From a virus: 64,000 bases of DNA. The stretch is taken from the IMG/VR virus record IMGVR_UViG_3300044646_003076. One strand, given 5' to 3'. The position numbers and the translations under genes are program-made. This document shows positions 325 through 43,806 of this stretch, piece after piece. Position 1 is the first letter of the stretch. Every line of letters begins with the position of its first letter. A model generated the notes under the pieces. It was given only the letters and a program-made list of their open reading frames with translations, was not told the DNA's origin and did no database searches.

Positions 325-806
325 AATACTTAATGCTCTCTGGTATCCCAACTAGCGGAAAATCCACCTATGTAAATAAGCTTCGGGAAATTCATTACTG
401 GCAATCTGCAGTAATCTTATCTACCGATAATTATATTGCTAGAATCGCAGAAGAGTCCGATACCACTTATGATGATGTATTTGAAGAATATATTAAAGAA
501 GCAACAAGACAGTTACACTTAGATTTACAAGAAGCAATTAAACTCAATAAACCGATCATTCACGATCAGACTAATCTAACAATCAAAACTAGAGCAAAAA
601 AACTTAGCAATATTCCTGTTCGCTATCAGAAAATTATTGTACACTTTGAAGTTCCGCTAGAAGAAGCACTGAGAAGAAATAAATGTCGTCCAGGAAAGTT
701 TATTTCTGAAGATATTATCAAAAGAATGTTTTATACTTTTGAACCACCGACTTCAGACGAAGGATTTAATCTAGTCTTGAGGTCAGATCAAGAACTGTCC
801 ATCTGA
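321..806 (+). CDS. P-loop nucleotide/polynucleotide kinase (AAA_33-like)
   Basis: Walker A GIPTSGKST, DQTN motif, lid ALRRNKCR. Confidence 0.8.
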   Translation: MKYLMLSGIPTSGKSTYVNKLREIHYWQSAVILSTDNYIARIAEESDTTYDDVFEEYIKEATRQLHLDLQEAIKLNKPIIHDQTNLTIKTRAKKLSNIPVRYQKIIVHFEVPLEEALRRNKCRPGKFISEDIIKRMFYTFEPPTSDEGFNLVLRSDQELSI

Positions 807-846
807 CAAGCATTTCCATACTATAATAGAGTAGACTTAAAATCCT

Positions 847-995
847 ATGTCCAAAACAAATCAGGTGAGTTTTTTATTAAACTATATGAAGACGAGAAGG
901 TGAAAATTATTACTAAGGGAGAAAAAGGAACAGATCCAGATCATCTTGCTTTTGCCACTGTTATACTTAAAGATACCAAAGATTCTGAAAAATGA
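847..995 (+). pseudogene. small gene split by a 1-nt indel in T6 run (870-875)
   Basis: MSKTNQVSF then -1 frame FIKLYEDEKVKIITKGEK...DSEK*, whose stop overlaps the next ATG. Confidence 0.45.
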
Positions 996-1783
996 GAATT
1001 AAACTATTATCGGATCTACATCTAGATCATGCGAAAGATCTTTCAATAATTGATTATTACACCGAAATGATTCTAACGTCCGGGAATCTTCTCATATTGG
1101 CCGGTGATATTTTATCAGTCAAACATCTTTCTTCTAATGGATTATTGAAGGATGTTTATTCTTCTTTCTTCCGAGAATGCTCTAAACGGTACGATAAGAT
1201 TATCTATGTAATGGGTAATCATGAGCATTTTGGATATAATTGTAGTCGTACAAAAAATAAGATCCAGGAATTTCTACCGAATAACTTTTATCTGCTAGAG
1301 AATCAAACTCTTCAAATTGATAATTGGAATTTTATTGGTTTTACACTATGGACCGATTTCAATAGAGCAAATCCGTTAGATATGATAAATGCATCGTCTT
1401 ATATGAATGATTATAAGGCAATTAGAATTACTGATCGTTATCGTAAATTCAGACCCGAAGACTCTCTCGCATTTCATCGAGGAAGTTTGCACTTTCTAAA
1501 AGAGCAACTCAATCTGATGAGCGATAATGTTTTTGTGATCAGTCATCATACTCCGAGTTATCGTTCGGTTCCACCCAAATTTATCGGCAATATCCATAAT
1601 TCGGCTTATTGTACTTCACTAGATGAGCTTATTATGGATTCTCCACAGATTAAGTATTGGGTGCATGGTCATACACATTGGCATCAAGATTATCATATTG
1701 AACAATGTAGAGTATTATGTAATCCTCATGGTTATTATGGAGAAACTACTGGATTCAATCCTAATTTTGAATTGGAAATCTAA
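992..1783 (+). CDS. calcineurin-like metallophosphoesterase
   Basis: SDLH, AGD, GNHE, SHH, HGHTH motifs. Confidence 0.9.
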   Translation: MRIKLLSDLHLDHAKDLSIIDYYTEMILTSGNLLILAGDILSVKHLSSNGLLKDVYSSFFRECSKRYDKIIYVMGNHEHFGYNCSRTKNKIQEFLPNNFYLLENQTLQIDNWNFIGFTLWTDFNRANPLDMINASSYMNDYKAIRITDRYRKFRPEDSLAFHRGSLHFLKEQLNLMSDNVFVISHHTPSYRSVPPKFIGNIHNSAYCTSLDELIMDSPQIKYWVHGHTHWHQDYHIEQCRVLCNPHGYYGETTGFNPNFELEI

Positions 1784-2058
1784 TGAGTCAACATTCTTTT
1801 GAATCAGAACCTATTACTGCTCAAGAGGCTAGATGTTTGAGTCAAAACTATAATAAATCCGATAGTTTTGAAAGACATATGCAAGAAATTTACGATAGAA
1901 TTAGATTTAATTCTAGTATGGGTAGACGTATTATATTCCATGAACTTTTTCTATCCCATCAAAATGTTGAACGAATTGTTCAAGAACTGTTGGCTAAAGG
2001 ATATAATGTAGAAAAAGAACTATTTCATTCTCATGGTGAATTGTTTATTAGTTGGTAA
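1783..2058 (+). CDS. hypothetical protein (TAxEAR...EIY...ELxxxGYxV...ISW family)
   Basis: operon tiling; paralogous to 16128 and 16394 genes. Confidence 0.75.
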   Translation: MSQHSFESEPITAQEARCLSQNYNKSDSFERHMQEIYDRIRFNSSMGRRIIFHELFLSHQNVERIVQELLAKGYNVEKELFHSHGELFISW

Positions 2059-2143
2059 ATTGTGCCACTCACACAACTGTCCACTAAAACCTGCTTTTTC
2101 TTTCGCTATCTGCTAAACTGAATTCACAAACAACGGAGTAATT

Positions 2144-2497
2144 ATGGGCTCTCTCACGACCTTTACTGTTTATAATGATTTTGCACATCATATCAAAAAG
2201 GATCCCAAGCAATTTGGTGAAAAAGTTTATGAACATATCCGTGAAATGGAGACTGGCGATGTTAGTCTGGAAATCGGCAATTGTTGCGCGACGGTTGCTA
2301 TTGGTCAACAATCTCGTCATGCTGATGATCTCTCAATCTATGTTCACATGGGAAATTGTGTGACCGAAGTGAATCCATATTCGCGCTCTTTTCAGGAATT
2401 AGTCAATAAAAATCCTCAGTTTGCAGATAAATTGATTGATTTTATTGAGGCAGAATTGGAGGAATTGAAAAAATTCAAACAAACAAAAAATAATTGA
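2144..2497 (+). CDS. hypothetical protein
   Basis: RBS ggag, follows class A promoter. Confidence 0.75.
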   Translation: MGSLTTFTVYNDFAHHIKKDPKQFGEKVYEHIREMETGDVSLEIGNCCATVAIGQQSRHADDLSIYVHMGNCVTEVNPYSRSFQELVNKNPQFADKLIDFIEAELEELKKFKQTKNN

Positions 2498-2506
2498 GGT
2501 ATTATC

Positions 2507-3358
2507 ATGGGCTGCTGGAACAAAACTTGTGGATTTTCGGGTCTTTCCATTATGGCGGGAGACCCTGTTTATGTTTTTGTTTTGAAGAAAAGCGATTATT
2601 ATGATCCATGTTCTTCAACTTCAGAATATACACCATTTCTTGCACCATTTGAGAGTTTTTATAATGATTGTAGAAGTGGTGAAAATTCTAGAGGAGTCTG
2701 GCTACCATATATTATGGAAGCTCTTAAGAAGAAACTCATTGAAATGGAGATCGGGGAAAATAAATGTCATGACATTGCAGTAAAACGCGATGATTTTGAT
2801 GTGGATCTCTTCTTCTCAGCAATTAATAAACAACGGTTGTTTATTAATGAACTTCAACCAAGTAATGCTATTCGTTTTACGATGATGCATAAAAGTATCA
2901 TTGATAAAATGTTAGAAGAATTTGAGTTCCGCCATTATGATTTTTTTAGGGAAATGGGGAAATGGGATTATAAATTTGCTGATATTATCACAAGAGTTGA
3001 AAATTATTGGACTAATATTAAATCATTTTATAACATCCATCAATTAATTGATTTTAATAGTAATTCAATCATTGGGTTTTATATTTTCCATTATATGTCA
3101 ACCATCAATTTTATACCGATAAGAGAAGTTATCGGCGAATGCCTACAAAATAACACCGAAGATGAAGTTGTCATTAATCTCATTAAAGAATATCTCAAAG
3201 GATTACACGTTGAGATAATGATGAATCATCTTCGCAAAGCTTGGCTACCTGGAGGATTTGAAGGTTTACAGGATTGTGATTATGAAGATGCATATAAACT
3301 ATTAGTCAATATTACACTTAATCATATCAAAGAAAAAGAAGAAGAATGGGATTATTAA
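2507..3358 (+). CDS. hypothetical protein
   Basis: 283-aa ORF, RBS gagg. Confidence 0.8.
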   Translation: MGCWNKTCGFSGLSIMAGDPVYVFVLKKSDYYDPCSSTSEYTPFLAPFESFYNDCRSGENSRGVWLPYIMEALKKKLIEMEIGENKCHDIAVKRDDFDVDLFFSAINKQRLFINELQPSNAIRFTMMHKSIIDKMLEEFEFRHYDFFREMGKWDYKFADIITRVENYWTNIKSFYNIHQLIDFNSNSIIGFYIFHYMSTINFIPIREVIGECLQNNTEDEVVINLIKEYLKGLHVEIMMNHLRKAWLPGGFEGLQDCDYEDAYKLLVNITLNHIKEKEEEWDY

Positions 3359-6228: not shown

Positions 6229-6370
6229 AGTTTATGGATACCAAAAAAGGACAGTCTAAAATCCGTCCACCTCCGGCTCCACACTCTCAGATCTATGCTA
6301 TGTTGATTAGGTCGGTGAGAGATCAATAATCCACCAACAAAACTTTGTCCTTTACTTTCTGAAAAATATT

Positions 6371-6478: not shown

Positions 6479-6561
6479 GAGGACACTTTTTGAACTGTCC
6501 ACCAACCATCCACAACCACCTTCTTCTCCGTTAGTATTCTCGCTGTCGTACTGAACCAACC

Positions 6562-8039: not shown

Positions 8040-8052
8040 GAGGAATTTTTAA

Positions 8053-9331: not shown

Positions 9332-9463
9332 AAGATGGCTTTAGTCCGTCTGCCGTGTTCTAGGATGGTCAGCATCACTCAAAGGACGATTTTAGAACTG
9401 TCCACCAGGACCTCTTAGCTCTCTAGAGATATGTTATTCTTTAGAAGAACTAAGAGGTATTTC

Positions 9464-9736: not shown

Positions 9737-10102
9737 ATGAAATACTGTTATTTTTTGTATGCTAGATCAAACAAAACTTTTACAATTAATTTTACTAAAA
9801 CATTAGACCGTGAAATTTCTGCTACGGACATTATGGAAGTGGAAAAATATCTTGAAACCAGATATCCCGAAAGCGGTAAGTGGACCACTGCTTCAATAAC
9901 TCTTCTGTCAAAAACGAATGAGAATTCAGACGAGACGAATCCTTATGTTGTTCATAATGTCTCACGCAATGAGAAAACTCATTTTCCTTTCCGAAGTGAT
10001 GCTGAAGCTTATTTTGATCTTCTTAAGGATGAATTGGGTTCTGGTTGTGAAATTGAGATGTGTATGATTATTAAGAAGCATGTCCCACCAGAAAGATTGT
10101 GA
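9737..10102 (+). CDS. hypothetical protein
   Basis: tiles operon. Confidence 0.65.
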   Translation: MKYCYFLYARSNKTFTINFTKTLDREISATDIMEVEKYLETRYPESGKWTTASITLLSKTNENSDETNPYVVHNVSRNEKTHFPFRSDAEAYFDLLKDELGSGCEIEMCMIIKKHVPPERL

Positions 10103-10181
10103 CGGTTTTTGATCTGGCACACATCTTGATCCCTGGCGCCGTTCTATCCATTATTCTTGATTAGTTATTGGAGAAAAAACC

Positions 10182-11014: not shown

Positions 11015-11504
11015 GCAAACTTGAACAAGCTAAACATCCAAACACATCACCAGAAGTCTTAGAAAAACTAGCGACCGATGAGCACTGTTGGGTTCGTCAA
11101 GCTGTAGCAAAAAATCCAAACACTTCGTCAAAAATTCTAGAAATTCTATCTGTTGATGGGGATCCTTGGGTTCGTTATAATGTAGCACTACATCCAAACA
11201 CACCACCAGAAATTCTAGAGCAATTAGCATCTGATAATAAATCTTATATTCGTCGGATAGTAGCAGAAAATCCAAATACACTAACAAAACACTATAACAA
11301 CTAGCTACCGATGAGTATCATTTGGTTCGTGAAGAAGTAGCAAGATATCAAAACAGTCCACCAAAAGCACTAGAACTACTAGCGACCGATGAGGATAACA
11401 ATGTTCTTATTAGGGTATTATTCAATCCAAACACACCTCACTATCTCAAAAAGTATCTTAAAATTCAAGAACATCTGAGGACACTTCTCAAACTGTCACA
11501 ATAA
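11011..11504 (+). pseudogene. LRV repeat protein (5 units + tail) broken by a 1-nt deletion and a GAA>TAA nonsense at 11287-11297
   Basis: aaaacactataacaacta versus canonical aaaacactagaacaacta; downstream frame continues to the tail. Confidence 0.75.
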
Positions 11505-11557
11505 CCACCCATTTCCACCATTCATCCGTTAAACTACAAACTGTATCTGAAGTTATC

Positions 11558-12253
11558 ATGAATTCTTCTGAAATCACAACCGCTGTTAGTGAAGCACTCC
11601 AACGACATATTCCTCTTATTGTTGAAGAGGTAACAACAAAGCTAACCAAGAAAGAAAAATGGGAAGATTATAGTGTTGAGAAACTATCTGCGATGGCTGT
11701 AAGTGAAGATTACAAACAAAGATGTTCCGCAGCAGCACATCCAAGAACACCCATGGAAATCATTTATAAGCTGCTTGAGGATCCGAATCATAATGTTCGG
11801 TTAGCAGTGGGCAGAAATCCTAATATTCCACTCATCACTCTTAGCTCACTTTCATTATATCCATCGTTGCTCAAAAAACTTAAAACTGAGGGGAATTTAA
11901 ATCAAATTATGGAGTTTTTTGATGAAGCTATTAAGTCTAAAGCCAATAAAAGCACCCGACGAAGCTTTAGAATGTTGATTGAAGAAAGAATTATGAATGG
12001 TGATTTTGATGACGAGCTTAATAACGGTATTAGTGGTTGGTATGGAGTTTTTAATTTGAATACACCAGCCAAATCACTTATTAATTGGACTGAAAAAACT
12101 TCAGATTTTTATTATGATTTTAGATTTTTATGTAAACTCATGATTAAATATCGGATCAAAAGATTCCTCCAAACTGCAACGCAAGATGAAAAAGAGTTAT
12201 TGCTTCATGTAGATTCTTTGTTGTTTCGGCGTTATTTTGATTCCACTTCTTAA
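11558..12253 (+). CDS. protein with degenerate LRV units
   Basis: AAAHPRTPMEIIYKLLEDPNHNVRLAVGRNPN. Confidence 0.75.
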   Translation: MNSSEITTAVSEALQRHIPLIVEEVTTKLTKKEKWEDYSVEKLSAMAVSEDYKQRCSAAAHPRTPMEIIYKLLEDPNHNVRLAVGRNPNIPLITLSSLSLYPSLLKKLKTEGNLNQIMEFFDEAIKSKANKSTRRSFRMLIEERIMNGDFDDELNNGISGWYGVFNLNTPAKSLINWTEKTSDFYYDFRFLCKLMIKYRIKRFLQTATQDEKELLLHVDSLLFRRYFDSTS

Positions 12254-12322
12254 ACTGTCACACTACAAACAGAAGATCAGCGTTTCCTGACTTACACTGT
12301 ATGAGTCTTCAACCAGCTTCGT

Positions 12323-13012: not shown

Positions 13013-13347
13013 CACACGTACAATATAAGCGATATCTTATTCGCAACAAAATGCTCAAATCAAAAAGAAAAGCGGAAAAAGAAGAGCCCAAAATTAAAAG
13101 AAGAATCGGGTATGAAATCTATTATTATGATCCAGAAAATAATGGAAAATTAGCTGAGAGGGATTTTAACTCTGTTATTAGAGCCCGTTCTTTTGTTAAT
13201 AATCTTCTCAAAAAGTATCATCAACAACGTATTGATTTAGAGATTGTTAAAGTCTGGTGTTATCGGAATCATCATCCGAGACACAAGACTTATTATGCCT
13301 GTTATCCCGATGAACCGAACAGATGGATCAAGTGTGACGGTTATTGA
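13009..13347 (+). CDS. basic hypothetical protein
   Basis: ATG overlaps upstream stop. Confidence 0.7.
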   Translation: MTHVQYKRYLIRNKMLKSKRKAEKEEPKIKRRIGYEIYYYDPENNGKLAERDFNSVIRARSFVNNLLKKYHQQRIDLEIVKVWCYRNHHPRHKTYYACYPDEPNRWIKCDGY

Positions 13348-13418
13348 GCTGTCCACTCGTTCTTCTGTTTTTCTCTGATTCTTATTATTCTAATTTTGCT
13401 CACAAGGAGGAATTTTTC

Positions 13419-14609: not shown

Positions 14610-14703
14610 TCTTTTTGAGTGAGTGGTCGGTTTTCTAGCTGTCCACTCATTCCACCGTTCTCTCGGATTTCCGTTATTGTATTACTAATTCCACGAAACC
14701 ACC

Positions 14704-15382: not shown

Positions 15383-15651
15383 AAGAAGATCTTCAAAAAA
15401 TGAGACAAGAGCAGAATCTTCAACTTCTGCCCACGGAAATGAGTTACAAACTCCGCCAAGCTCTTGATGGTAAAGGTCCCTTCGCCGAATTGTGGAAAGA
15501 TGCACCACATCAGGTTCTTCTTATTGCATGTGAAGAAATGGAAGAATTTGCAGAATGGAGTCGGCAAATGGAAGATTCCCAGCGAGAAATTAATGGTGAT
15601 TACGAATCATTTAAAAGAACCCTAAGGACAGTTTCTAAGCTGTCCACTTGA
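15379..15651 (+). CDS. hypothetical protein
   Basis: tiles operon. Confidence 0.7.
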   Translation: MKEDLQKMRQEQNLQLLPTEMSYKLRQALDGKGPFAELWKDAPHQVLLIACEEMEEFAEWSRQMEDSQREINGDYESFKRTLRTVSKLST

Positions 15652-15704
15652 TCCTTCCGATACTCTTCTTTTTTGTTATTCTTGTTTTGTAACCGGAGAT
15701 TTCC

Positions 15705-17683: not shown

Positions 17684-18724
17684 ATGGCTAAGAGTAATCA
17701 GCTTATTCCAAAAATTCCCGAAGAAGCGTCTTCTGCGATTGATCTAGCCAAGAAAACAACAGATAGAGCTGTTCTTATTGCTCTTTCAAAACATACTAAT
17801 GATGATGTAAGATTCTTTGTTGCTGAAAATCGTTACACTCCTGTCGAAGTTCTCCGGGAACTTTCAAAGGATCCATATTTTACTGTTCGGCTTAAAGTTG
17901 CGGGAAATCCTTCAACTCCTTCAGATGTTTTAGAGAATATTATGGAAAATGATATTTCTCTTAAGGCAGAAGTGGAAAATAATCTTTCTTATAAAAGTAA
18001 AGATAAAGAAGAAGTTCAGGCTTTTCTTAAGAACATTAGTATAACTGATGCCAAAAATTTAGCGGAAAATATTAATACTCCTCCTGAGACACTTATTAAA
18101 CTTGCCAGACATAAAGATTCACTTGTTACTTATCATATATCTTGTAATCCCATGACTCCAACAGAAGCTCTTAGAATTCTTGCCACTCTTGATGATCATG
18201 TTGTAAGAAAATATGTGTTTGATCATAATAATTCGTCAGCAGAAACCTTAGCTATTATTGATGATAGAGACGGTTTTACCACAGGACATTTTAGGATTCT
18301 TTACGACAAACAGGCCAGAATTATTGAAAAATACAAAAGAGAAGAAACACAAAGAGTTGCACAACAAGAACAAGAACAGAAACGTCTAAAAGAAAAAGAA
18401 GAAAAACTTCAGAGAGAATTAGAACTGAGACAAGAATCTCAAAGAATCCTCGCAATTATTAGTAATCCTGAAACACCTATTGAAGAATTATTAAAATACA
18501 GCTATCGTGAAGAACTCATTAACAACCCAACCTATAGGAGATACCTAAATCTCAATAAGACAGACCCAACTGATTTAGAAATTCTAGATTTTCTAGATTG
18601 GGTCTATAATGCAGACACAGAAAAACTAGAAGCCTTTGCTAAACTAGATTTATCTAAGAAATTATCATTGTGGGAAAAACTAATTCTGTTCTTTAAAAAT
18701 CTCTTTAACGGAAAAACATTATGA
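17684..18724 (+). CDS. degenerate LRV/HEAT repeat + coiled-coil protein
   Basis: VRFFVAENRYTPVEVLRELSKD, VAGNPSTP units; Q/E/K-rich helix. Confidence 0.8.
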   Translation: MAKSNQLIPKIPEEASSAIDLAKKTTDRAVLIALSKHTNDDVRFFVAENRYTPVEVLRELSKDPYFTVRLKVAGNPSTPSDVLENIMENDISLKAEVENNLSYKSKDKEEVQAFLKNISITDAKNLAENINTPPETLIKLARHKDSLVTYHISCNPMTPTEALRILATLDDHVVRKYVFDHNNSSAETLAIIDDRDGFTTGHFRILYDKQARIIEKYKREETQRVAQQEQEQKRLKEKEEKLQRELELRQESQRILAIISNPETPIEELLKYSYREELINNPTYRRYLNLNKTDPTDLEILDFLDWVYNADTEKLEAFAKLDLSKKLSLWEKLILFFKNLFNGKTL

Positions 18725-19002
18725 ATCGTTTTGAAAATCTTCTACTCAGCTTAGGTATTGCTGCTTTTATCGGATTGATTATTGCGATGATCGTTCTCAA
18801 CTATAATTACGAAAAGAATTATGTTGCAACGAATGATTGCCATCTCACCGGAAATACTAAAACCGAAGAATACTCATACTGGGTCACTACTGATTCAACG
18901 ACCGGAGCTGGTTTTGTTGATTATGGCGAATACACCACTTATGAGTATTATTGTAATGTCACCGGAAGCAATAAATGGTTTATGTATCGGTTTTACGACT
19001 GA
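18721..19002 (+). CDS. membrane-anchored protein
   Basis: N-terminal TM helix. Confidence 0.7.
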   Translation: MNRFENLLLSLGIAAFIGLIIAMIVLNYNYEKNYVATNDCHLTGNTKTEEYSYWVTTDSTTGAGFVDYGEYTTYEYYCNVTGSNKWFMYRFYD

Positions 19003-19084
19003 TGCCACTTTGAAAGCTGTCCACCACTGAGTTCTCAGCCACGTTATTGGTGCTATAGTACATTCTACCAACAAGGAGTTTTTA

Positions 19085-20370: not shown

Positions 20371-20600
20371 TAATCCCTCTAGGATCAAACCAAAACGAAA
20401 AAATTCTATCCAACGGCAATAAGATTCTCTTTTCTTATTCAAAACCTGTTGCCGCTTTTGTTGTTGGAGAAGGTTATTTGAGAACTTATGATCCTTGTTC
20501 TTATACAACGAATTCTCACATCAATAAATGGATAGAAAACAATGCCTGTGCTCTCGTACCACAAAAACGGATTGATGAGATCCTACATGCCGGTTCATGA
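20367..20600 (+). CDS. hypothetical protein (SYxxPVA...YSxTTxxHINKW type)
   Basis: ATG overlaps upstream stop. Confidence 0.7.
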   Translation: MIIPLGSNQNEKILSNGNKILFSYSKPVAAFVVGEGYLRTYDPCSYTTNSHINKWIENNACALVPQKRIDEILHAGS

Positions 20601-20671
20601 ACTGACACATCTACCATTCAAACATAATCATTCATAATCTACAATAAAAACATCCATTCCACTCTTCGGAA

Positions 20672-21867: not shown

Positions 21868-21934
21868 CTGTCCACCGACCAACATCTTCTTCACTTGACT
21901 CCCGCTATTATGGTAACGCCAACGGAGATTTTCA

Positions 21935-22463: not shown

Positions 22464-22672
22464 ATGAAATCTTTATTCCTGGTCAAGTTTGGTTGTTCTT
22501 AGGACACATTCAAGATAAAATGATCTGCAGAGAATGTCAGATTATTGAGATTACAAATAACACTCCTAGCGTTATTCGTTTTAGAGAAACGACTGAGAAT
22601 GTAAATGGAGATTTTTATGAAGGTTGTTTTGACAAACTAATCCGGGAGCCAATTGCTGAAGTGGCACAATAG
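22460..22672 (+). CDS. hypothetical protein
   Basis: tiles operon. Confidence 0.65.
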   Translation: MNEIFIPGQVWLFLGHIQDKMICRECQIIEITNNTPSVIRFRETTENVNGDFYEGCFDKLIREPIAEVAQ

Positions 22673-23245: not shown

Positions 23246-23452
23246 ATGACACAACTCAATCTCACATCTGGGCAAATTCTTGATATTATGGAGGCTCTAC
23301 GTCATAAATTGATTAATGCTCTCAATAATGAAGATGAGCACTTGGCTGTTTATTATGACAACATGATTAAACAATTTGAGGATGTTTATGATAAGTTACA
23401 GGAGCTTCCTGGTGAAAAGAGAGAAGCTCATCTGATTCTGGCGATGAATTAG
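23246..23452 (+). CDS. hypothetical protein
   Basis: probable start MTQLNL. Confidence 0.7.
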   Translation: MTQLNLTSGQILDIMEALRHKLINALNNEDEHLAVYYDNMIKQFEDVYDKLQELPGEKREAHLILAMN

Positions 23453-23556
23453 GACGGTTCATAAGGTGGCACAATAACTCAGCACGACCAGCAAGAAGGC
23501 GTTATCTTATAAAAGTCAACCGACAACAACCACAACACACCGGAGGAAACTCAATC

Positions 23557-24751: not shown

Positions 24752-25353
24752 TGATTATGATGAAGAATGAAGATATTACGAAGCTAACACGTAAAGAAAA
24801 ATGTAATCAAGCTAGAGATCCAAACACCCCATCGGAAGTTTTAGAACATTTAGCAACCGATGTGGATTATTCTGTTCGTTATTGGGTGGCACATAATCCA
24901 AATACGTCACCAAAAGCTCTAGAACAACTAGCGACCGATGTGTATTCTAATGTTCGTTGTGGAGTAGCAGAAAACCCAAACACACCACCAAAAGCCCTAG
25001 AACTTCTAGCGACCGATAAGGATCATTTTGTTCGTTGTGATGTAGCAAGAAATCCAAACACTCCACCAACAACATTGGAACTTCTAGCTACTGATAGGTG
25101 TGGTTATGTTCGTTGGGATGTAGCACAAAATCCAAACACTCAACCAAAAAGTCTAGAGCAATTAGCGACCGATAGGTATTATGATGTTCGTCGTGGTGTA
25201 GCAGAAAACCCAAACACACCACCAAAAGCCCTAGAACAACTAGCGACCGATGAGTATTATGGGGTTCGTTATTTTGTAGCACAAAATCCAAACACACCAC
25301 ACTACATCAAAAAGTATCTTAAAATTCAAGAACATCTGAGGACACTTCAATAA
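24751..25353 (+). CDS. LRV repeat protein, 6 units + C-tail
   Basis: canonical units; tail PHYIKKYLKIQEHLRTLQ. Confidence 0.9.
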   Translation: MIMMKNEDITKLTRKEKCNQARDPNTPSEVLEHLATDVDYSVRYWVAHNPNTSPKALEQLATDVYSNVRCGVAENPNTPPKALELLATDKDHFVRCDVARNPNTPPTTLELLATDRCGYVRWDVAQNPNTQPKSLEQLATDRYYDVRRGVAENPNTPPKALEQLATDEYYGVRYFVAQNPNTPHYIKKYLKIQEHLRTLQ

Positions 25354-25419
25354 CTGTCACAATAACCACTCGTTACACCATAGAAATCTGCTAGTATTCA
25401 ACTACAAACCGATCTTCTC

Positions 25420-25581: not shown

Positions 25582-25864
25582 TTAAAGGAAATGTTATTGG
25601 AATTATTGGATGCATTCTAATCACACTCATCGTAATCATAGTCACTTATCTAGTGGAAGCCTATAAAAACTACTAATTTATGATAAGTCTAGCAATTTAT
25701 GTCATTTTGTTTCTTCTACTGATCATCTTATATTGTGCAGGTTCATTAATGATTTTTTTGATTATTGAAATCCTAAATGATTAATGTGCCAGTTGAGCTA
25801 GTGTCCACTCTGGCGGCCGTTATTCCGATAAAAGTGTTATAATTAAAAAGTCTTCAAATCTTCA

Positions 25865-26120: not shown

Positions 26121-27506
26121 ATGAAACTTCAAGAAATTATTGCCCGTCTGAACACCAAAGAAGAACCCTATTCCGGTGAAGATCTTCAAAAGGAGCTTGG
26201 TCACCAAAATCCAGTGGATCTTTCAATCTTTGGTTTCACTATTCGCACGATCAAGAAATATAGCACTTCCGTAAGAGCTGCCTATAAACTCATTTACCAT
26301 AGTGGTGTTCCAATTTGTATTGCTCATTATTATCAATCATTTCAATATTTTTTGGTTGATTATACGTGGATCAGTGAAGAGATCTATTGGAATATCCTGA
26401 AAATTATTAAAAATATTCACTCTCAAGATATTCGTCTTATTGATCAAAATGAAGAATGGGATCCCGTTGATATTGAACTGGAACCAATTAGTGAAATTAT
26501 TCTGTCCGAAAGACAGAAACTTGAACTGGCAAAAAATCCAAATACTTCTTCTGGATTGTTGGAGTTTCTTGCATCCGATGAGAATGAAGAGGTTCGTTCG
26601 GGAGTAGCACAAAATCCCAATACTCCACCAAAAGTCCTAGAACAACTAGCGACCGATGAGTATTCTTATGTTCGTTGTTGTGTAGCACATAATCCAAATA
26701 CTTCAACAAAAACACTAGAACAACTAGCGACCGATAAGGATTATTGGGTTCGTTGGAGAGTAGCAAAACATCCAAACACATCACCGAAAGTTCTGGAACG
26801 ACTAGCAACAGAAGAGACTGATATTAATGATTATGTTCGTCATGCTGTAGCAGAAAACCCAAATACCCCATCAGAGTTCCTAGTACGTCTAGTAACCAAA
26901 GCTACAGGAGCGTCCGATGTTGATGTTTATATTCGTCGGGGAGTAGCAGGAAATCCAAACACACCATCACCAACATTAGAAGTTCTAGTGACCGATGAAA
27001 ATGATAATGTTCGGAAACTAGCGACCGAAAATCTTAAATCAAGGAATGAAGAGGTTCGTCGGTATGTGGCAGGAAATCCAAACACACCACGTACAACATT
27101 AGAAGTTCTAGCGACCGATGATGATGATTATGTTCGTTGGTTTGTAGCACAAAATCCAAACACACCACCAGAACTTCTAGAAGTGTTGGCGAATGATGAG
27201 GCTCTTAATGTTCGTTGGTTTGTAGCAAAAAATCCAAACACACAGTCAAAAGCCTTAGAACTTCTAGCAATCAATAAGGATTTTGGTGAGCATCATTGGG
27301 GAATTCACTGTGGAGTAGCAGAGCACCCAAACACTCCATTAAAAACTTTAGAACTTTTTGTGACCCATAATAATGGTGCAGTTCGTTATTGTGTGGCAGG
27401 AAATCCAAAAACACCAACCGAAGTCTTAGAAGTGTTGGTTAATGATGAGTTTCTTAATGTTCGGGAACGAGCGACCGAAAATCTTAAATCAAGGACGGTT
27501 GCTTAA
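26121..27506 (+). CDS. fusion of N-terminal domain (paralog of 31960 gene) and about 11 LRV units
   Basis: N-term aligns with 31960-32535; LRV array from about 26515. Confidence 0.85.
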   Translation: MKLQEIIARLNTKEEPYSGEDLQKELGHQNPVDLSIFGFTIRTIKKYSTSVRAAYKLIYHSGVPICIAHYYQSFQYFLVDYTWISEEIYWNILKIIKNIHSQDIRLIDQNEEWDPVDIELEPISEIILSERQKLELAKNPNTSSGLLEFLASDENEEVRSGVAQNPNTPPKVLEQLATDEYSYVRCCVAHNPNTSTKTLEQLATDKDYWVRWRVAKHPNTSPKVLERLATEETDINDYVRHAVAENPNTPSEFLVRLVTKATGASDVDVYIRRGVAGNPNTPSPTLEVLVTDENDNVRKLATENLKSRNEEVRRYVAGNPNTPRTTLEVLATDDDDYVRWFVAQNPNTPPELLEVLANDEALNVRWFVAKNPNTQSKALELLAINKDFGEHHWGIHCGVAEHPNTPLKTLELFVTHNNGAVRYCVAGNPKTPTEVLEVLVNDEFLNVRERATENLKSRTVA

Positions 27507-27574
27507 CTGTCCACCGATGCCACCAGTGACTCGGTAACCATCTTATATTGATTCTGTTACCGAGAGATTTTCTC

Positions 27575-28319: not shown

Positions 28320-28550
28320 ATGTATCTTTATACAGTTGAAATTCATTACCAATATAACGACAAGATTGTACAACTTGTTTGTATTCACGATGCGTTGTCT
28401 TATCTCATATACACTTTTGATAAAACAGAAGATATTCTTGAATATACAATTAGTTGTGGCACAAATACGTTATTGACCAAAGAATTTTTTAGTTTTCGGT
28501 GCGATAAACTTGTAACGGAATTTCATTTTGAAGATCCTTATCTAGTGTGA
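28320..28550 (+). CDS. hypothetical protein
   Basis: probable start MYLYTV. Confidence 0.6.
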   Translation: MYLYTVEIHYQYNDKIVQLVCIHDALSYLIYTFDKTEDILEYTISCGTNTLLTKEFFSFRCDKLVTEFHFEDPYLV

Positions 28551-28631
28551 CACTTCAATAACTGACACACACTATATGCTTTCAGTGTCTCAGTAGTGCT
28601 ACAGTTCTTTTGTTACTAAAGGAGTTTAAAG

Positions 28632-29452: not shown

Positions 29453-29790
29453 AAGTTTTAGCGATAGATCCGAAATGGTATATTCGGTATCGTGTAGCAA
29501 AGAATCCTAAAACATCGAAAGAAACTCTAGGGATTCTGGCTGCAGATGAAGATTTTAGTATTCGTTTTACTGTGACACAACATCCACATTTAAGTCAAAA
29601 AACCCTAAAAATCCTAGCGTCAGAGGAAGAATATCGTGTTCGTGATGAGGTGGCCTTGCACCCAAACACTTCAACCGAAACACTAGAGATTCTAGCGACA
29701 GATTGTGATTACCGGGTTCGGAGAAATGCAAAGATGCACCCTAATTATAAGATTTCTCGTTGGAATTTTTTGAAGTTTCTGTTCGGGTGA
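29452..29790 (+). pseudogene. 5'-truncated LRV repeat gene (about 4 units, no start codon)
   Basis: frame open from 29431 (KVLAIDPKWYIRYRVAKNPKT...) without ATG; abuts upstream stop. Confidence 0.6.
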
Positions 29791-29873
29791 GTGTCGGTTC
29801 GGCAAGTGGCACAGTCCGAACGTAGCTGGCCCAGAAGAGCTGCTATATTGATTTTGTTCCCAAAGGAAATTCC

Positions 29874-31167: not shown

Positions 31168-31320
31168 ATGAAACTTAGTAAAGAAGAAAAACTCCAAGAG
31201 ATTAAATCGGCTTTAGAGAGCCTTTCTACTTCATTATGGGAGGATGCAAACACTTATCATAGTGAATGGCTTGATAGAATTTTGGCGGATTTGGAATCTT
31301 TTATTACAGAGGACACCTGA
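31168..31320 (+). CDS. 50-aa helical protein
   Basis: MKLSKEEKLQEIKSALESL...; stop inside class A dyad. Confidence 0.6.
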   Translation: MKLSKEEKLQEIKSALESLSTSLWEDANTYHSEWLDRILADLESFITEDT

Positions 31321-31393
31321 ACAACTGGCACATAAGCGCTACCATTCCGACATAAGAGTGGTTATTATTCTTTTATTCACTGAGGAAGTTCTT

Positions 31394-31903
31394 TTGACTA
31401 ATTCCGATTCCTGGAAAGCTCTAGGTGAGGCCCAGCGAGCGCTTCTGCTGGCCTCAGAGAGAATTCTTTCTCTAGAGGGTCGCAGTTCCGCCTGGCGCGA
31501 TGCCAGGATCGCTTCTGATCGCGCTCGTGATCTTCTGGTGAGCCGTCAACAAACGCCATCGTGCATTGTGGACAAAATTGAAAAAATCGAAAAAGAACAT
31601 GATAAACAAATGACAGAGTTAGCGGATGAATATCGCAAGGAAGTTATTATTCCATTTTGTAAAAAGTACGGACTCTTATATGGTACCGGAATGGGAACAA
31701 TGTCCTTTTTTGTAAGACATCCAGAAATTGATACTGTTGATGAAATTGATTGTGAATTGAATAAGATTCCAGATTTTGTACCCCAAAAGGCTATTCCTGA
31801 ATTGAAAGAGATATACAAGATTCTAAGAACTGATGATATGAATCCTAATCAATGTTTTGGTTATTATGTTGACGATGTGACAGAAGAAGATCTGGCACAA
31901 TAA
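31394..31903 (+). CDS. hypothetical protein
   Basis: TTG start after gagg and class A promoter at 31309; track start 31244 is upstream of the promoter. Confidence 0.65.
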   Translation: MTNSDSWKALGEAQRALLLASERILSLEGRSSAWRDARIASDRARDLLVSRQQTPSCIVDKIEKIEKEHDKQMTELADEYRKEVIIPFCKKYGLLYGTGMGTMSFFVRHPEIDTVDEIDCELNKIPDFVPQKAIPELKEIYKILRTDDMNPNQCFGYYVDDVTEEDLAQ

Positions 31904-31959
31904 GACCAACATAAGAACGGTTACTCTGTTAGACTGAATCCGATCTCAAAAGAAAAATC

Positions 31960-32832: not shown

Positions 32833-33120
32833 ATGGCCAAGAAAATTCTTCCTTCCAGGTTCTATAAAGCAGATTTTTCCGGTAGAGTATCTGATATAAA
32901 GAAAGAAAAAAGAATATCTTGGTATATTGAAAATCAATATGGATCTGTTGAAGAAGGAAATTTCGATGTTGTAACAGAAATTAAATATAGAAATGCTAAA
33001 AAGTCCAGATCTATTGCGAGGCATTACGTTAAAAAAGGTAATATCAATAAAGTTACTCTCATCAAAGTTGTTATGAGAGGTGAATGGCAATTCTTCTTTC
33101 CTAAAGTAATTAAGAGTTAA
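32833..33120 (+). CDS. basic hypothetical protein
   Basis: follows class A promoter. Confidence 0.7.
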   Translation: MAKKILPSRFYKADFSGRVSDIKKEKRISWYIENQYGSVEEGNFDVVTEIKYRNAKKSRSIARHYVKKGNINKVTLIKVVMRGEWQFFFPKVIKS

Positions 33121-33182
33121 GAACACTTGGTAAACTGGCACAAAACTGTTTCCGCCAACATGAAAAGTGTTATGATGAATTC

Positions 33183-34361
33183 ATGTCTACAACACGGACT
33201 ACGATCTCTTCTGAATTAAAAATGTCTATTTTTCGCGGTATTGTTGACATTTTTCCTGAAATTCCAACGGACTTTCTGGCTACACCAAAAAAGGATCAAA
33301 TTGGGGTTTGATCCTACATCGGATAGCTTACATTTGGGACATTCTATTCTTTTAAGAAAGCTCTCCGAATTTCAAAATGCTGGCCATAAACCAGTTATTA
33401 TTATTGGTGACTTTACAGCAAGAATTGGTGATCCAACTGGAAAATCAAAGACGCGCAAACAACTGACAAAAGAAGAAGTTGATGATAATGTTGATACATT
33501 TTTCACCACAATTTCTAAGTTTATTGATGTAAATAATGCTGAATTCGTCTTTAATTCCACTCATCTTAATTCACTCACTTTATCTGAAATTATTAGGCTC
33601 CAGTCAACATTTACAGTAAATCAGTTACTAGCAAAACAAGACTTTAGGGACCGATTCAATAAAGAAAACCCTATCGGTCTACATGAAATGATGTACCCGT
33701 TATTGCAAGGTTTTGATAGCTTTGCTGTAAAATCTGACATTGAATTGGGTGGAGTTGATCAAAAATTTAACGTATCTATCGGTAGAGTTATTCAAAAACA
33801 ATTTGATTCCGATAACCAACAAGTGGGAATGTTAATGCCGATTCTCATTGGAACTGATGGAAAAGAAAAAATGTCCAAGAGTCTCAATAATACCATAGGA
33901 ATAGATGAACACCCGCTTAATATGTTCTCAAAACTGGAAAAATTCCAGACAACATTGTAGACGATTTTATTTTACTTTTGACAGACTTAGGCATGACAAA
34001 TCTGCCTGCCAATCCTAGAGAAAAACAAAAGTTGATGGCAGTTGAAGTAGTTTCAACAATTCATGGTGAAGAAGAAGCCAAAAATGCTCTTAAAAATTCA
34101 GAGGCGATTATCGTATCCGGTGAAACAGAAGTTATTGCCGAAGAAGTCGCTTTTGAAGAAATTAAGCTGCCGATTCTACTCGCTAATTTACTTAAAGATA
34201 TAAATTTTACAAAATCAACAAGTGACGCGAGACGTTTGATAACTTCTGGTGCTATTAAAATAGATGGAATAAAAATTACAGACGAAAAACATACTGTTAA
34301 TGAATTTGGTCAACTCTTACAAGTTTCCCGTAAAAGATTTTTCCGTCTTATTGCAAAATAG
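33183..34361 (+). pseudogene. tyrS: tyrosyl-tRNA synthetase in three frames (+1 at A6 33287-33292, -1 at A5 33938-33942); pseudogene, recoding or sequencing error
   Basis: RGIVDIFP, KLGFDPT..HLGH, IIGDFTARIGDPTGKS, YPLLQGFDS, ELGGVDQKFN, KMSKS, C-terminal S4 domain KSTSDARRLITSGAIKIDG. Confidence 0.9.
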
Positions 34362-34451
34362 TGGCCAATAATCAAACTGGCACAGTCCATTGAATAATGG
34401 GTTGCTTATGGTCTATTATTCATTTGTCAACCGTTCACCACATTACAAACC

Positions 34452-35099: not shown

Positions 35100-35239
35100 T
35101 AAAATCACGACAAGACTTCATAAGAAGTAATGATTCTTTGTGGACACTTCAACAACTGGCACAGTCCATTGAATAATGGGTTGCTTATGGTCTATTATTC
35201 ATTTGTCAACCACAGACGCCTTTCATCACTTCGGTAACC

Positions 35240-35812: not shown

Positions 35813-35906
35813 CAAATGTCGGAAGCCGGTTCAAGAAGTGGCACAATAGGCTTTTCATTGTTCCTAGGTTCTGGTTAAACTATTATTGTTCTCAAACAGA
35901 GAAATC

Positions 35907-36587: not shown

Positions 36588-36802
36588 AAACCACATCCTC
36601 CTCTAATCCAGGAGGATTTTTTATTGTCCATAAAACTCAAATTTATTAAAAGACTTCCAAACGTAGTACCCATTCCCGAAAATGAAATCATGTAAATTTA
36701 TTAAAGTCTAAAGGACAGTTAAGAAACTGGCACAGTCTATTGGATAATGGATTGCTTATGGCCTATTATTGATTTGTTCATTCACAAACGAGGATTTCTC
36801 TC

Positions 36803-38402: not shown

Positions 38403-38431
38403 TTGACAACGATACTCCAACCGTCTATATT
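38403..38431 (+). promoter_or_regulatory. sigma70-type early promoter
   Basis: TTGACA-17-TATATT. Confidence 0.8.
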
Positions 38432-38999: not shown

Positions 39000-39439
39000 C
39001 ACCTGTTACAATAACTAACATTTGCTTCGGTATTATTATATCGGAGCATTTGTTATATCTTTACATTTAGTCTTAATAACATCTTATAGTGTCCGTAAGA
39101 GTTATTATACATGATACAATGCACTAATGGTCCATGAGTGTTCCAGTTTATCAAGTGTCCACTGCTACCACCGCTCCTTCATAATATGGGTTATTGTTAT
39201 TAAGTTCTCAAGAGATCACTCAAATGGAGACTGTTTTATTGTATTGAAATCTGAATAGCAATTCATTTAATAACATCTTTCTGGAGAATCTAATGGATGT
39301 TCCTTTCCTGTTCTTTTTTATTGTCTTTACAATCATGGGTTGGGCCATTTACTATAACAACCACAACGAATAAGACACTTCATAAACCGTCTACTAATAA
39401 CATCACACCTACAATAACAACGAATCATTCAAAACAACT

Positions 39440-39628: not shown

Positions 39629-39994
39629 ACTCAAAAGTGTTTCATATAGCTAGGACTAATAATCCTAGCTTTTTATTGTCTAATAATCTAATAACATAAA
39701 TAATAACAGGTAATAACAATCCTCTTACACCTCCGGCCTCTGTAGTCACTGTCTCAAAGAGATCAAATTACACACCACTAAGGTTCTTAAAGATTAAAAA
39801 TCCTACTTCCAACCGAATAACAAAAACAGTAATAAAACTGATTATATTTTATTGCTTATAATAATTCAAGTAGAAAGCGTTAGCGCAATCTACGATTTTT
39901 TAGTATCTGCGTGTACCAGTTTATCAAGTGTCCACTGCTACCACCGCTCCTTCATAATATGGGTTATTGTTATTAAGTCCTCAGGGAAACAACA

Positions 39995-40168: not shown

Positions 40169-40403
40169 GTAATAATCTACAGATACGGCCACAAAACTGA
40201 CCAGATCCTTCCATAGTGTTTCATATAGCTAGGACTAATAATCCTAGCTTTTTATTGTCCAATAATAATTCAAGTAGAAAGCGTTAGCGCAATCTACGAT
40301 TTTTTAGTATCTGCGTGTACCAGTTTATCAAGTGTCCACTCATGGTTGCTTGATCTTTTAATACCTGTTATATTGTTATTGATCTAAAAGAATTCCACTC
40401 GCC

Positions 40404-40586
40404 ATGCTAACGATTTTTATCATTTACTTATACATGGTCACTTGCACATATTGGGCTCTTGTTGCATTACGAACTCCGAGTAATTTTTCCGAACGAGGTC
40501 TTATGATATGGGCTGCATTATGGTGGCCGGTATTGATTCCAAGTGTGTTAATTGCTAAGATCCTAAAGGAATTGGATTCTTTATGA
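40404..40586 (+). CDS. small membrane protein
   Basis: hydrophobic, AALWWP motif. Confidence 0.65.
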   Translation: MLTIFIIYLYMVTCTYWALVALRTPSNFSERGLMIWAALWWPVLIPSVLIAKILKELDSL

Positions 40587-40664
40587 CACTCCATAAGCTG
40601 TCCACTCATCACCAATAATCCCAGCACTATCCGCTAACATGATTACTGTTATTGGATTTCTTCC

Positions 40665-40826: not shown

Positions 40827-40830
40827 TCCA

Positions 40831-40986: not shown

Positions 40987-40990
40987 TCCA

Positions 40991-41397: not shown

Positions 41398-41600
41398 CAA
41401 TAGAACCATTCTTATCAAGTTATGAAATCCATCTTAAACGTTGTTATACCGCAATAAGTTTACACACTCCAATAAAAGATCTAATGATATTAGCAAATGA
41501 CGAGGATCATTTTATTTGGGATTTGGTAGCAGAAAATCCAAACTGCCCACGTTATCTTAAAAGATACATTGCAATTAAAAAGTATCTAATGAAACTGTGA
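41391..41600 (+). CDS. minimal LRV protein (1 unit + divergent C-tail)
   Basis: ILANDEDHFIWDLVAENPNCPRYLKRYIAIKKYL. Confidence 0.7.
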   Translation: MVTIEPFLSSYEIHLKRCYTAISLHTPIKDLMILANDEDHFIWDLVAENPNCPRYLKRYIAIKKYLMKL

Positions 41601-41678
41601 CACTTCATAAGCTGTCCATCTAATTCCGATGTTCTCAACACCATCCACTAACATAATTACTGTTATTGGATTTCTTCC

Positions 41679-41987
41679 ATGAAAATCTATCTTGATGATG
41701 AGCGGTCAACACCAACAGGATGGATTCGTTGTTATTGGCCCGATGAGGTTATAACACTTCTACAGAATAACATCGTTGATATTATCTCACTGGATCACGA
41801 TCTTGGTGATGATAATAGAGGCACAGGAAACGATGTAATCTTATGGATTGAAGAACAAGTCTTTACCAATAACTATAAGCCGCCGATTATTCAGGTGCAT
41901 TCGGCTAACAGTTCTGCGAGATTGAAGATGGAGAATGGTATTAAATCCATTCAAAGACGAGTAGCGAGACTCTGTGCCACTTCATAA
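41679..41987 (+). CDS. cyclic-phosphate-processing receiver-like domain protein
   Basis: KIYLDDER, ISLDHDLG, TGNDVILWIEE, VHSAN. Confidence 0.75.
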   Translation: MKIYLDDERSTPTGWIRCYWPDEVITLLQNNIVDIISLDHDLGDDNRGTGNDVILWIEEQVFTNNYKPPIIQVHSANSSARLKMENGIKSIQRRVARLCATS

Positions 41988-42057
41988 GCTGTCCACCGGA
42001 ACCACCGATTCCCAATAATCCGCTGTATTGTTATTAAGTCCCAGAAAAGGAATTTCA

Positions 42058-42306: not shown

Positions 42307-42330
42307 TAACCTCAAATTTCTCCTCCTCCA

Positions 42331-42576: not shown

Positions 42577-42599
42577 CCATCCACATTTCTTCTCTTCCA

Positions 42600-42881
42600 A
42601 TGAGCACCCCAACTAAAACTGAATACATTCAGATGCCGGCTATTTCCACGCCAGCTATTGTAAATCATCTTCACGCTCTCCCTGAAGGTAAAGAAAAAAA
42701 TACACTTCGTTTGCAATATCTTATGCGCTATCTCTCAACTTATAGAGAAGCACCCGATATTAAGACATTGACGAATGATGTTCTTTATGCACTCGGGGTT
42801 GTAACCGATCCAGTTAATTTCACCGGAGCCATCGGACTTACTGAATATAAAAACTTTCTCAAAGAAAATCATCTTTCATAA
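42600..42881 (+). CDS. hypothetical protein
   Basis: 5' end similar to 42331 gene. Confidence 0.7.
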   Translation: MSTPTKTEYIQMPAISTPAIVNHLHALPEGKEKNTLRLQYLMRYLSTYREAPDIKTLTNDVLYALGVVTDPVNFTGAIGLTEYKNFLKENHLS

Positions 42882-42998
42882 CAACCATACACATTTAACA
42901 ATAAACACCAATAATATCTGCTGAGGTATAACAATACTTCAGCTTTTGTTATATTCTTATTTTTTGTCTTAAAAAATGAATAGGGTGTCCGTATCTGT

Positions 42999-43092
42999 AT
43001 TCTACTGATGGTGTTGGGATCCGTCAAGCATTCTTCCATAAGCAATTCTGATCGGTTAAGGGGTTGACCTAAGCGGTTCCAGGGTCTATATT
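42999..43092. promoter_or_regulatory. Class B divergent sigma70 promoter pair 1
   Basis: left TTGACG-17-TAGAAT; right TTGACC-17-TATATT; core ataagcaattctgatcggttaa. Confidence 0.85.
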
Positions 43093-43119
43093 ATGGAAGT
43101 TCATCAGACAAGCCTTCTT

Positions 43120-43488
43120 ATGTCCCGGAATCCCGCTCCCGAACTGAAGCACGACATTGCAGTTCATGAGGGGTTCGTAACCCTGAATAATAACGATGAT
43201 GGTTTCTATACACAATACTTCAATAATCGGGAAGAGGTTGAGCAATTCATCGCTGAGCTACGTGAGGCAATGGATAATGTATGGCCGGATGGTGTTAATC
43301 CTGAAGAACTGCAGGAAGAATGTTATCAAAAACGAGAGGAAGAGCGTCAAGAATACTTGCGCAATAATCCTCCTCGGCCACAAACACCAGAAGAGATTGA
43401 ACGTAATAAAAGGCTGATGACACTTCTTGATAAACTGGCTAATGATGATTCATATAGTGTTTGTTCTCATGTAGCGGAAAATCCCTGA
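43120..43488 (+). CDS. hypothetical protein ending in one LRV unit
   Basis: C-term LLDKLANDDSYSVCSHVAENP*. Confidence 0.7.
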   Translation: MSRNPAPELKHDIAVHEGFVTLNNNDDGFYTQYFNNREEVEQFIAELREAMDNVWPDGVNPEELQEECYQKREEERQEYLRNNPPRPQTPEEIERNKRLMTLLDKLANDDSYSVCSHVAENP

Positions 43489-43566
43489 TTCATCACACCA
43501 TAAGCACCTATCCACAACATAATACGTTAACACCCTCCTCTACCACTGCCTTTTCAGCGACATTAT

Positions 43567-43604
43567 TGTGCTCAGGGAGTCCTTTATCCTTGAGCACATT
43601 TTTG
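43567..43604 (+). terminator. rho-independent terminator
   Basis: tgtgctcaggga/tccttgagcaca + ttttt. Confidence 0.7.
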
Positions 43605-43806
43605 TAGCTGAGATCCAAGATGATCTAAATAAATCTAAAAAACCTTTTATCGGGAATTTCGGTCTGAAGGTGCTATGGGTCATTCCGTCAAATAAGATCA
43701 CCGATAATTTCATTGTTATAATAAATGTTATGTGCCAGTCCATAAGCTGTCCACCGATACTCTCATGTTCCCATAATCTGCTGTATTGTTAAGAAGTCTT
43801 CAGAGA

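Follow-up and report, generated by a model that had tools for sequence, protein, structure and literature searches.

We analysed a stretch of 64,000 nt (the window) from an uncultured T4-like cyanomyovirus of lake water, recorded as IMGVR_UViG_3300044646_003076, in which a 24-bp imperfect dyad recurs in front of small genes and is followed at a fixed distance by a -10 box. From position 1 to ~44 kb nearly all open reading frames (ORFs) are small and lie on the + strand, and the dyad sites head such genes between 779 and 43789, upstream of gp25/gp6. The structural module of this freshwater phage begins at ~55 kb; the ORF at 55555-57453 encodes the baseplate wedge protein gp6 (Pfam Gp6-like, phrog_219), which shares 64% identity with its counterparts in Synechococcus phages B3 and B23, and 50-55% with those of P-TIM68, S-SM2 and S-SRM01. 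A close relative, the IMG/VR contig IMGVR_UViG_3300044591_002420 (G006; DNA identity 75-98%), spans the window plus 65 kb upstream of it. Positions 1-25000 of the window had no DNA-level match in the phage collection, and an Rfam search of the whole window at gathering thresholds gave zero matches.

Geometry and sequence of the dyad-promoter cassettes

The sequence-only reading of this DNA had described 38 copies of a 10-4-10 inverted repeat, each followed by a -10 box. Scanning its example pattern with up to three mismatches gave 15 matches in the window and 0 in 100 shuffles used as the control. A symmetric weight matrix for the dyad, with a cut-off of 12 bits, found 36 sites compared with 0.6 in shuffles. 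Under a combined rule, which accepts a dyad of more than 12 bits, or of more than 8 bits if a TAnnnT box stands at the right offset, the window yields 38 sites, the first starting at 779 and the last ending at 50050, where chance would give 0.75. Their starts run from 779 to 43731, plus an orphan at 50027, so that both the number and the range agree with what had been described (Table 1). The density is high: 38 copies in 44 kb of this phage, compared with 48 in 125 kb of G006.

The distance between dyad and -10 box is almost invariant. On the + strand, TAnnnT starts 39 or 40 nt past the start of the right arm in 31 of the 36 strongest sites and 38-40 nt past it in 34, the spacing originally proposed; all other offsets hold 0-5 sites each, and a scan of the mirror side of the same 36 dyads revealed no peak. 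All seven pairs of dyad and -10 coordinates that had been quoted as examples were reproduced. Each unit is therefore polar, with its fixed offset on a single side, and aimed at the downstream gene. The 25-nt spacer between dyad and -10 has zero information content, and the absence of a -35 box was borne out: the best TTGACA match at 16-18 nt spacing agrees at 2.53 of 6 positions, compared with 2.58 at all other TAnnnT boxes of the window. The -10 boxes themselves are weak, 13 of 37 being within one mismatch of TATAAT. They are often TG-extended, as had been noticed: TGn precedes the box at 12 of 34 sites (35%, background 9%), and G occupies position -14 in 65% of units (background 23%). In most units the start codon follows 28-32 nt after the start of the -10 box; with the distances of dyad, -10 box and start codon all fixed, the whole cassette of ~85 nt has a fixed geometry.

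The dyad has the form [T]GTG[A/C]CA[G/C]TT-N4-AA[C/G]TG[T/G]C[A/C]AC. The inverted repeat is thus real, although less regular than first described: it is imperfect and polar, and its outer GTG/CAC may shift by one base nearer or farther. The right, promoter-proximal arm AACTG is better conserved than the left arm CA[G/C]TT, and C occupies dyad position 17 in 105 of 128 sites pooled from five phages. Judged from the position of the -10 box, the dyad would span about -65 to -42 with its centre near -53.5. In many units the upstream gene ends within the dyad: its stop codon falls at the dyad centre (13345-13347, 21865-21867, 25351-25353, 27504-27506 and others), built into the N4 centre or the right arm (..TAAC.., ..TGAGC..), so that the left arm doubles as coding sequence for the C-terminal residues of the protein before it. 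Three cassettes (34361-34470, 35140-35250 and 36711-36820) have a nearly identical 60-nt spacer and leader, which includes the short inverted repeat CCATTGAATAATGG; recent duplication or gene conversion between promoters accounts for them.

We asked of the 128 oriented sites whether the ten mirrored position pairs covary between the arms. They do not: complementarity equals the independent-column expectation at all ten pairs. At the inner variable pair 8/17 it is 0.38 where 0.46 is expected, and the commonest arm combination, CACTT...AACTG, cannot pair at the variable position. The lack of arm covariation identifies the dyad as a protein site rather than a hairpin. A sigma-54-like reading of the TGGCAC in the dyad was also discarded because there is no -12 element at a fixed spacing; cyanobacteria are not known to have a sigma-54. 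That the units consist of a promoter plus a protein site is, in our judgement, very likely.

Footprinting of the window against G006 over 16 orthologous cassettes gave higher identities at the specified dyad positions (96.9%) and in the -10 box (97.9%) than in the spacer (88.7%) or the N4 centre (89.1%). Only 16 of 36 window cassettes have a collinear orthologue in G006. Ends of aligned blocks between the two genomes fall inside 70-bp cassettes in 11 of 71 cases (4.0 expected; p ~0.0025), which suggests that modular gene shuffling occurs at the promoter cassettes; being conserved, these would also serve as joints for such exchange, in the manner of the promoter-early stem-loop (PeSL) cassettes of T4-like phages (Arbiol 2010; Comeau 2014, PMC4122927). 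Like the PeSLs, the cassettes are conserved intergenic regulatory units between small genes of a hyperplastic region, and breakpoints are enriched in them. They differ in that the PeSL repeat is a terminator hairpin, whereas the arms described here, lacking covariation, have the character of a protein site. Cyanophages are outside the scope of the PeSL paper (PMC4122927).

Table 1. Dyad sites of the window found by the combined dyad and -10 rule
Span	Strand	Dyad	-10 box (start)	ATG	Score (bits)	Remarks
779..837	+	779-802	TAGACT (832)		16.8	
2061..2119	+	2061-2084	TAAACT (2114)	2144	24.0	
6247..6304	+	6247-6270	TATGTT (6299)		13.7	
6479..6537	+	6479-6502	TAGTAT (6532)	6562	23.9	
9382..9440	+	9382-9405	TATTCT (9435)		16.1	
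10098..10157	+	10098-10121	TATTCT (10152)	10182	24.9	
11477..11535	+	11477-11500	TAAACT (11530)	11558	25.9	
12239..12298	+	12239-12262	TACACT (12293)	12323	22.0	
13333..13391	+	13333-13356	TATTCT (13386)		23.0	upstream stop codon at dyad centre; heads AAA ATPase gene
14623..14680	+	14623-14646	TATTGT (14675)	14704	15.2	
15624..15682	+	15624-15647	TATTCT (15677)	15705	19.7	
18085..18143	+				12.0	doubtful weak site within ORF 17684-18724
19001..19059	+	19001-19024	TATAGT (19054)	19085	20.5	TG-extended
20586..20645	+	20586-20609	TACAAT (20640)	20672	21.1	
21852..21911	+	21852-21875	TATTAT (21906)	21935	23.0	
22645..22668	+	22645-22668			23.4	no TAnnnT at canonical offset; CATAAT-like box follows
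23450..23508	+	23450-23473	TATCTT (23503)	23557	23.4	
25338..25397	+	25338-25361	TAGTAT (25392)	25420	26.3	
25785..25843	+	25785-25808	TATAAT (25838)		23.4	
27491..27549	+	27491-27514	TATATT (27544)		19.6	
28546..28605	+	28546-28569	TACAGT (28600)	28632	26.2	
29790..29849	+	29790-29813	TATATT (29844)	29874	21.7	
31309..31368	+	31309-31332	TATTAT (31363)		25.4	
31876..31935	+	31876-31899	TAGACT (31930)	31960	19.8	
33119..33176	+	33119-33142	TATGAT (33171)		20.5	
34361..34419	+	34361-34384	TATTAT (34414)	34452	19.1	
35140..35198	+	35140-35163	TATTAT (35193)	35240	28.3	
35822..35881	+	35822-35845	TAAACT (35876)		23.1	
36711..36769	+	36711-36734	TATTAT (36764)	36803	25.0	
39139..39197	+	39139-39162	TATTGT (39192)		22.6	
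39371..39394	+	39371-39394			16.0	no -10 box at canonical offset
39912..39970	+	39912-39935	TATTGT (39965)	39995	23.3	
40316..40374	+	40316-40339	TATATT (40369)	40404	23.3	
40582..40640	+	40582-40605	TAACAT (40635)	40665	20.5	
41596..41654	+	41596-41619	TAACAT (41649)	41679	23.6	
41973..42031	+	41973-41996	TATTGT (42026)		25.9	
43731..43789	+	43731-43754	TATTGT (43784)		25.0	last of series
50027..50050	.	50027-50050			17.5	orphan; no -10 box at canonical distance; outside small-gene region

The unit in other cyanophages and its place among known systems

The class is not private to this phage. A dyad with TAnnnT at 39 +/- 1 nt forms 57 units in B23, 48 in G006, 28 in S-SRM01, 27 in S-CRM01, 13 in P-HM2, nine in Syn9 and three in P-TIM68, and a sequence-only covariance model search located the dyad in S-PM2 and P-SSM2 as well. 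The element, with the same spacing, thus occurs in nine further phages, marine and freshwater, and every T4-like cyanophage examined carries it. The -10 boxes of the relatives are nearer to TATAAT than those of the window. In S-SRM01 and B23 a G+C-rich terminator hairpin is often found within the spacer between dyad and -10. B23 also shows a TAnnnT box at the mirror distance on the other strand for 18 of 43 dyads (e.g. 117131 and 117707; ~26% by chance), unlike the window, where only 6 of 36 dyads have one; these mirror-side boxes of B23 may be divergent antisense promoters.

The Syn9 dyads cluster at 43-53 kb, in the block of small genes from gp55 to gp93 that lies just before the baseplate genes and is syntenic with the window. 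The Syn9 positions are 43113, 44774, 47204, 48558, 49078, 51000, 51211 and 52996, with further sites at 127492, 130353 and 148742. In a 2016 study of Syn9 and P-TIM40 by Doron and co-workers, a novel regulatory element reportedly controls the early genes of Syn9, while its middle genes are said to be driven by host-like promoters; the early-gene elements are reportedly abundant and conserved among T4-like cyanophages, and no binding factor is said to have been reported. The dyad class is likely to be this early-gene element (Doron et al. 2016, ISME J 10:1437). Both stand upstream of small genes of an early cluster, both are abundant and both are conserved among T4-like cyanophages; the window phage has far more copies (38 in 44 kb). 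No description of the dyad was found in the literature searched. The proposed middle-mode system is unlikely in view of the synteny with Syn9 and of the reported early-gene element; we infer an early class, most probably the cyanophage early-gene element.

Several well-characterized systems share parts of this architecture. The late promoters activated by P2 Ogr and P4 Delta have a dyad, TGT-N12-ACA, near -55 and no -35 box, and their small activator contacts the alpha subunit of RNA polymerase. The window units share with them the -10 box, the missing -35 and a dyad centred near -55, but the sequence is different, the site spans 24 bp rather than 18 bp, and the P2/P4 class is late and not early. 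An Ogr/Delta-type activator was rejected as the binder, since the zinc-finger gene is absent from eight cyanophage records, in which PF04606 had no match over the cut-off. In T4 MotA/AsiA promoters and class II CRP/NtcA promoters, as in the window units, an activator site replaces the missing -35 in front of a -10 box. However, the MotA box, at -30, spans 9 bp and is not a palindrome, and CRP (TGTGA-N6-TCACA) and NtcA (GTA-N8-TAC) sites measure 14-16 bp and are centred at -41.5. The window site spans 24 bp, the centres of its arms are 14 bp from each other and its own centre lies near -53.5; it falls outside the CRP/NtcA class and stands, as had been maintained, apart from both types. Cyanomyoviruses lack motA and asiA (PMC2984593).

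Host Yfr2 promoters, candidate binders and alternative explanations

A counterpart of the phage arm was found in the host. The yfr2 genes of Prochlorococcus and marine Synechococcus are preceded by CGRE1, a palindrome that is conserved among them (Lambrecht et al. 2018, PMC6191309). In that work a pull-down with the CGRE1 element of a Prochlorococcus MED4 yfr2 promoter captured the GntR-family protein PMM1637 (PlmA), which shifts the yfr2 promoter in electrophoretic mobility shift assays, loses binding upon the R50A exchange and activates the yfr2 promoter in an Escherichia coli reporter; homologues are stated to occur in all cyanobacteria (PMC6191309). Phages are not mentioned in that paper (PMC6191309).

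We located Yfr2 genes with the Rfam model Cyano-1 in 44 picocyanobacterial genomes and read 41 upstream regions. The core of the left arm lies at -62 to -54 from the start of the RNA model in 26 of the 41 regions, the chance expectation being about one. Across dyad positions 1-10, base frequencies agree between hosts and phages with r = 0.94-1.00 at nine of the ten positions; even the degenerate position 5 has the same composition (hosts A 0.54 / C 0.38, phages A 0.55 / C 0.40). In the host promoters the TAnnnT box most often stands 48-49 nt from the arm; in the phage this distance is 48 nt. The CGRE1/PlmA promoters and the phage units therefore have in common the 9-10-nt arm GTG[A/C]CAGTT, its degenerate positions and the spacing to the -10 box, and both would be activator-type sites upstream of a promoter without a -35. 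A single GntR gene of ~340 codons is present in each of three hosts searched, and no GntR domain was detected in nine phage records.

We favour, as on balance probable, an account in which host RNA polymerase with its primary sigma factor would use the -10 or extended -10 box without a -35, and a dimeric protein on the 24-bp dyad would activate or boost each promoter. Seated near -53.5, the dimer would supply the contact of the missing -35, probably through the alpha C-terminal domains. The units, which head small, fast-changing genes of the takeover type, would be this phage's copies of an early-gene element common to T4-like cyanophages (Kyanoviridae). An early class calls for a factor that already exists at injection, and the likeliest binder would be the host GntR regulator PlmA (PMM1637 in MED4), which would be in the cell before the DNA enters; the phage dyad would then be a symmetrised form of the host Yfr2-promoter site, with arm and register copied. 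Both arms are better kept in the phage sites than in the host. From the sequence comparison PlmA is a plausible, if still tentative, candidate for the protein that binds the phage dyad. The sequences themselves show the motif, its geometry and conservation, the lack of covariation and the match to host promoters; the transcription start sites, the early timing, a bound protein that activates and does not repress, and the identity of that protein are inferred. The dimeric activator near -53 that had been proposed is consistent with a dimer-type protein site centred at about -53.5; its supposed origin in the phage is less likely, as no phage DNA-binding gene was found in all carriers and the arms and their register match the host Yfr2 promoters.

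Several observations weigh against this account. The host right arm reads nAGCGnCC, where the phages have AACTGnCAC. Moreover, six of the 41 host promoters contain the perfect palindrome AACTGnCAC-N1-2-GTGnCAGTT (21-22 nt), in which the order of the arms is reversed relative to the phage dyad. This palindrome is most likely the published CGRE1, which is described as having GTTG/GTTA flanks 13-14 nt apart. It does not occur in the window, G006, B23, S-SRM01, Syn9 or S-CRM01; a single loose match was obtained in each of P-HM2 and P-TIM68, the remaining two of the seven phage genomes scanned besides the window. A rigid dimer should not bind both arrangements, and with an arm order unlike that of the host palindrome, binding by PlmA stays a hypothesis. 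CGRE1 is described as starting 55-57 nt before the start site (PMC6191309), which does not obviously equal the position of the dyad. In five picocyanobacterial genomes, including that of the Syn9 host WH7803, the strict pattern and the phage-trained profile found 0-2 matches, a chance level, so that very few promoters would make up a host regulon; the Yfr2 sites of the hosts, however, are too asymmetric for the phage-trained model, which missed them. Finally, up to a quarter of the units in the relatives have a good -35 (7 of 27 in S-CRM01, 5 of 28 in S-SRM01), and the dyad may thus modulate these promoters rather than be required by them.

One good phage-type dyad, TGTGACGGTC-GAAC-AACTGTCTAC, was seen in Cyanobium sp. 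N.Huapi 1H5 (L144, G002:C5:164396-164417). It lies in an A+T-rich patch of a G+C-rich genome, not next to any Yfr2 gene, and the patch may be phage-derived DNA.

The scarcity of such sites in host genomes beyond a few Yfr2 promoters, and the phage arm order unlike that of the host palindrome, would be easier to understand if the phage itself encoded the dimeric protein that binds the dyad and activates the promoters; the virion would bring this protein along, or a few promoters that do not depend on the dyad would produce it. There is a protein to consider: P0001 (phrog_1308), of 50-70 aa and strongly conserved, is predicted to adopt a three-helix helix-turn-helix (HTH) fold (pLDDT >95), and the best fold matches of the model, weak as they are, are all DNA-binding HTH proteins (sigma region 4, DeoR and homeodomains). 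Its gene stands in a dyad-driven operon in B23 and G006, and the window also carries a late operon (51881-54822) whose proteins are possibly capsid-targeted. We nevertheless consider a phage-encoded factor unlikely. No candidate present in all carriers was found, P0001 being missing from P-HM2, with its 13 units, and from P-TIM68; early genes need their factor at time zero; and such a factor would not account for how exactly the phage arm and register agree with those of the Yfr2 promoters.

The individual phage candidates were rejected on similar grounds. P0001 was dropped because both phages that lack it carry units, and DUF7717 (Syn9 gp69, early region) because it is missing from P-HM2. The pan-conserved DUF7207, DUF6433, DUF3110 and Sm-like proteins belong to no detectable DNA-binding family, and among the five possibly capsid-targeted proteins of 51881-54822 a GNAT domain was the only domain match. 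Within the P0001 family (N-terminus MRPETREAMEMLF..., phrog_1308/1920), members from marine and freshwater cyanomyoviruses share 65-90% identity (G006, locus L135, 18292-18504; Syn9 57929-58093; S-CRM01 76330-76488). The family occurs in seven of nine phages and not in hosts, and its gene is translationally coupled to the preceding one.

Should the -10 and extended -10 promoters fire unaided, the dyad could instead be a shut-off operator at which a bound protein of host or phage later represses the early class. The early classes of T4-like phages do get shut off, the S-CRM01 and S-SRM01 units with a full -35 and -10 should need no help, and about a third of the window units have a TG-extended -10. 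This arrangement is improbable, though: a site at -65 to -42 is clear of the polymerase core contacts, the usual position of a repressor, weak -10 boxes (13 of 37 within one mismatch of TATAAT) without a -35 are typical of activator-dependent promoters, and PMM1637 activates the related host promoters in the published reporter (PMC6191309). Very improbable, and dropped as a hairpin or terminator, is a dyad that works by folding, be it as a cruciform or as a hairpin for termination or processing of the upstream gene, or that is a mere recombination cassette like the PeSLs: its location at the 3' end of the upstream gene, often around the stop codon, the true G+C-rich hairpins with T-runs between dyad and -10 in S-SRM01 and B23, and the synteny-block ends inside cassettes would suit it, but the 128 sites show zero covariation, with CACTT...AACTG unpaired at the variable position, the stem is weak, no T-run follows the dyad, a fixed distance to a -10 exists on a single side, and recombination at conserved cassettes is an expected by-product.

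Other features of the window and significance

The window holds promoter-like elements besides the dyad units. Four near-identical, dyad-free, host-like promoters, TTGAC[A/C/G]-N17-TATATT, lie on the + strand at 38426, 43087, 47276 and 48157, two of them a few nucleotides ahead of an ORF start; they may be a second promoter class. CTAAATA boxes occur around the structural module, at 54864 and 55131 (+) upstream of gp25/gp6 and at 52281 and 54852 (-) upstream of the minus-strand operon 51881-54822, and look like this phage's form of the T4-type late promoter. The exact sequence TATAAATA has zero occurrences in the window. The window has no tRNA gene, yet positions 4453-6228 encode an aspartyl-tRNA synthetase of class II that is full-length, with tRNA-synt_2, anticodon-binding OB fold and GAD domains.

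How T4-like cyanophages achieve early transcription without the Alt/Mod, MotA and AsiA proteins of T4 has been a question since their first genomes were described (PMC2984593). The element itself is already known, and the window is a new and very rich instance of it: the richest known set of such promoters, from a freshwater phage and with a very clean motif. The interesting and testable part is the link to PlmA, which, as far as we found, is absent from the literature. That all T4-like cyanophages start infection by borrowing PlmA, through symmetrised copies of the Yfr2 site placed before dozens of early genes, is a possible generalization, though somewhat less likely than not. If it is true, the onset of infection would be tied to the nitrogen, light and energy state of the host, and the phage would soak up PlmA away from the host Yfr2 circuit. 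Should PlmA prove to be the binder, the early phase of infection would be linked to a host regulator of stress and nutrient responses, on which resistance or host range might hinge.

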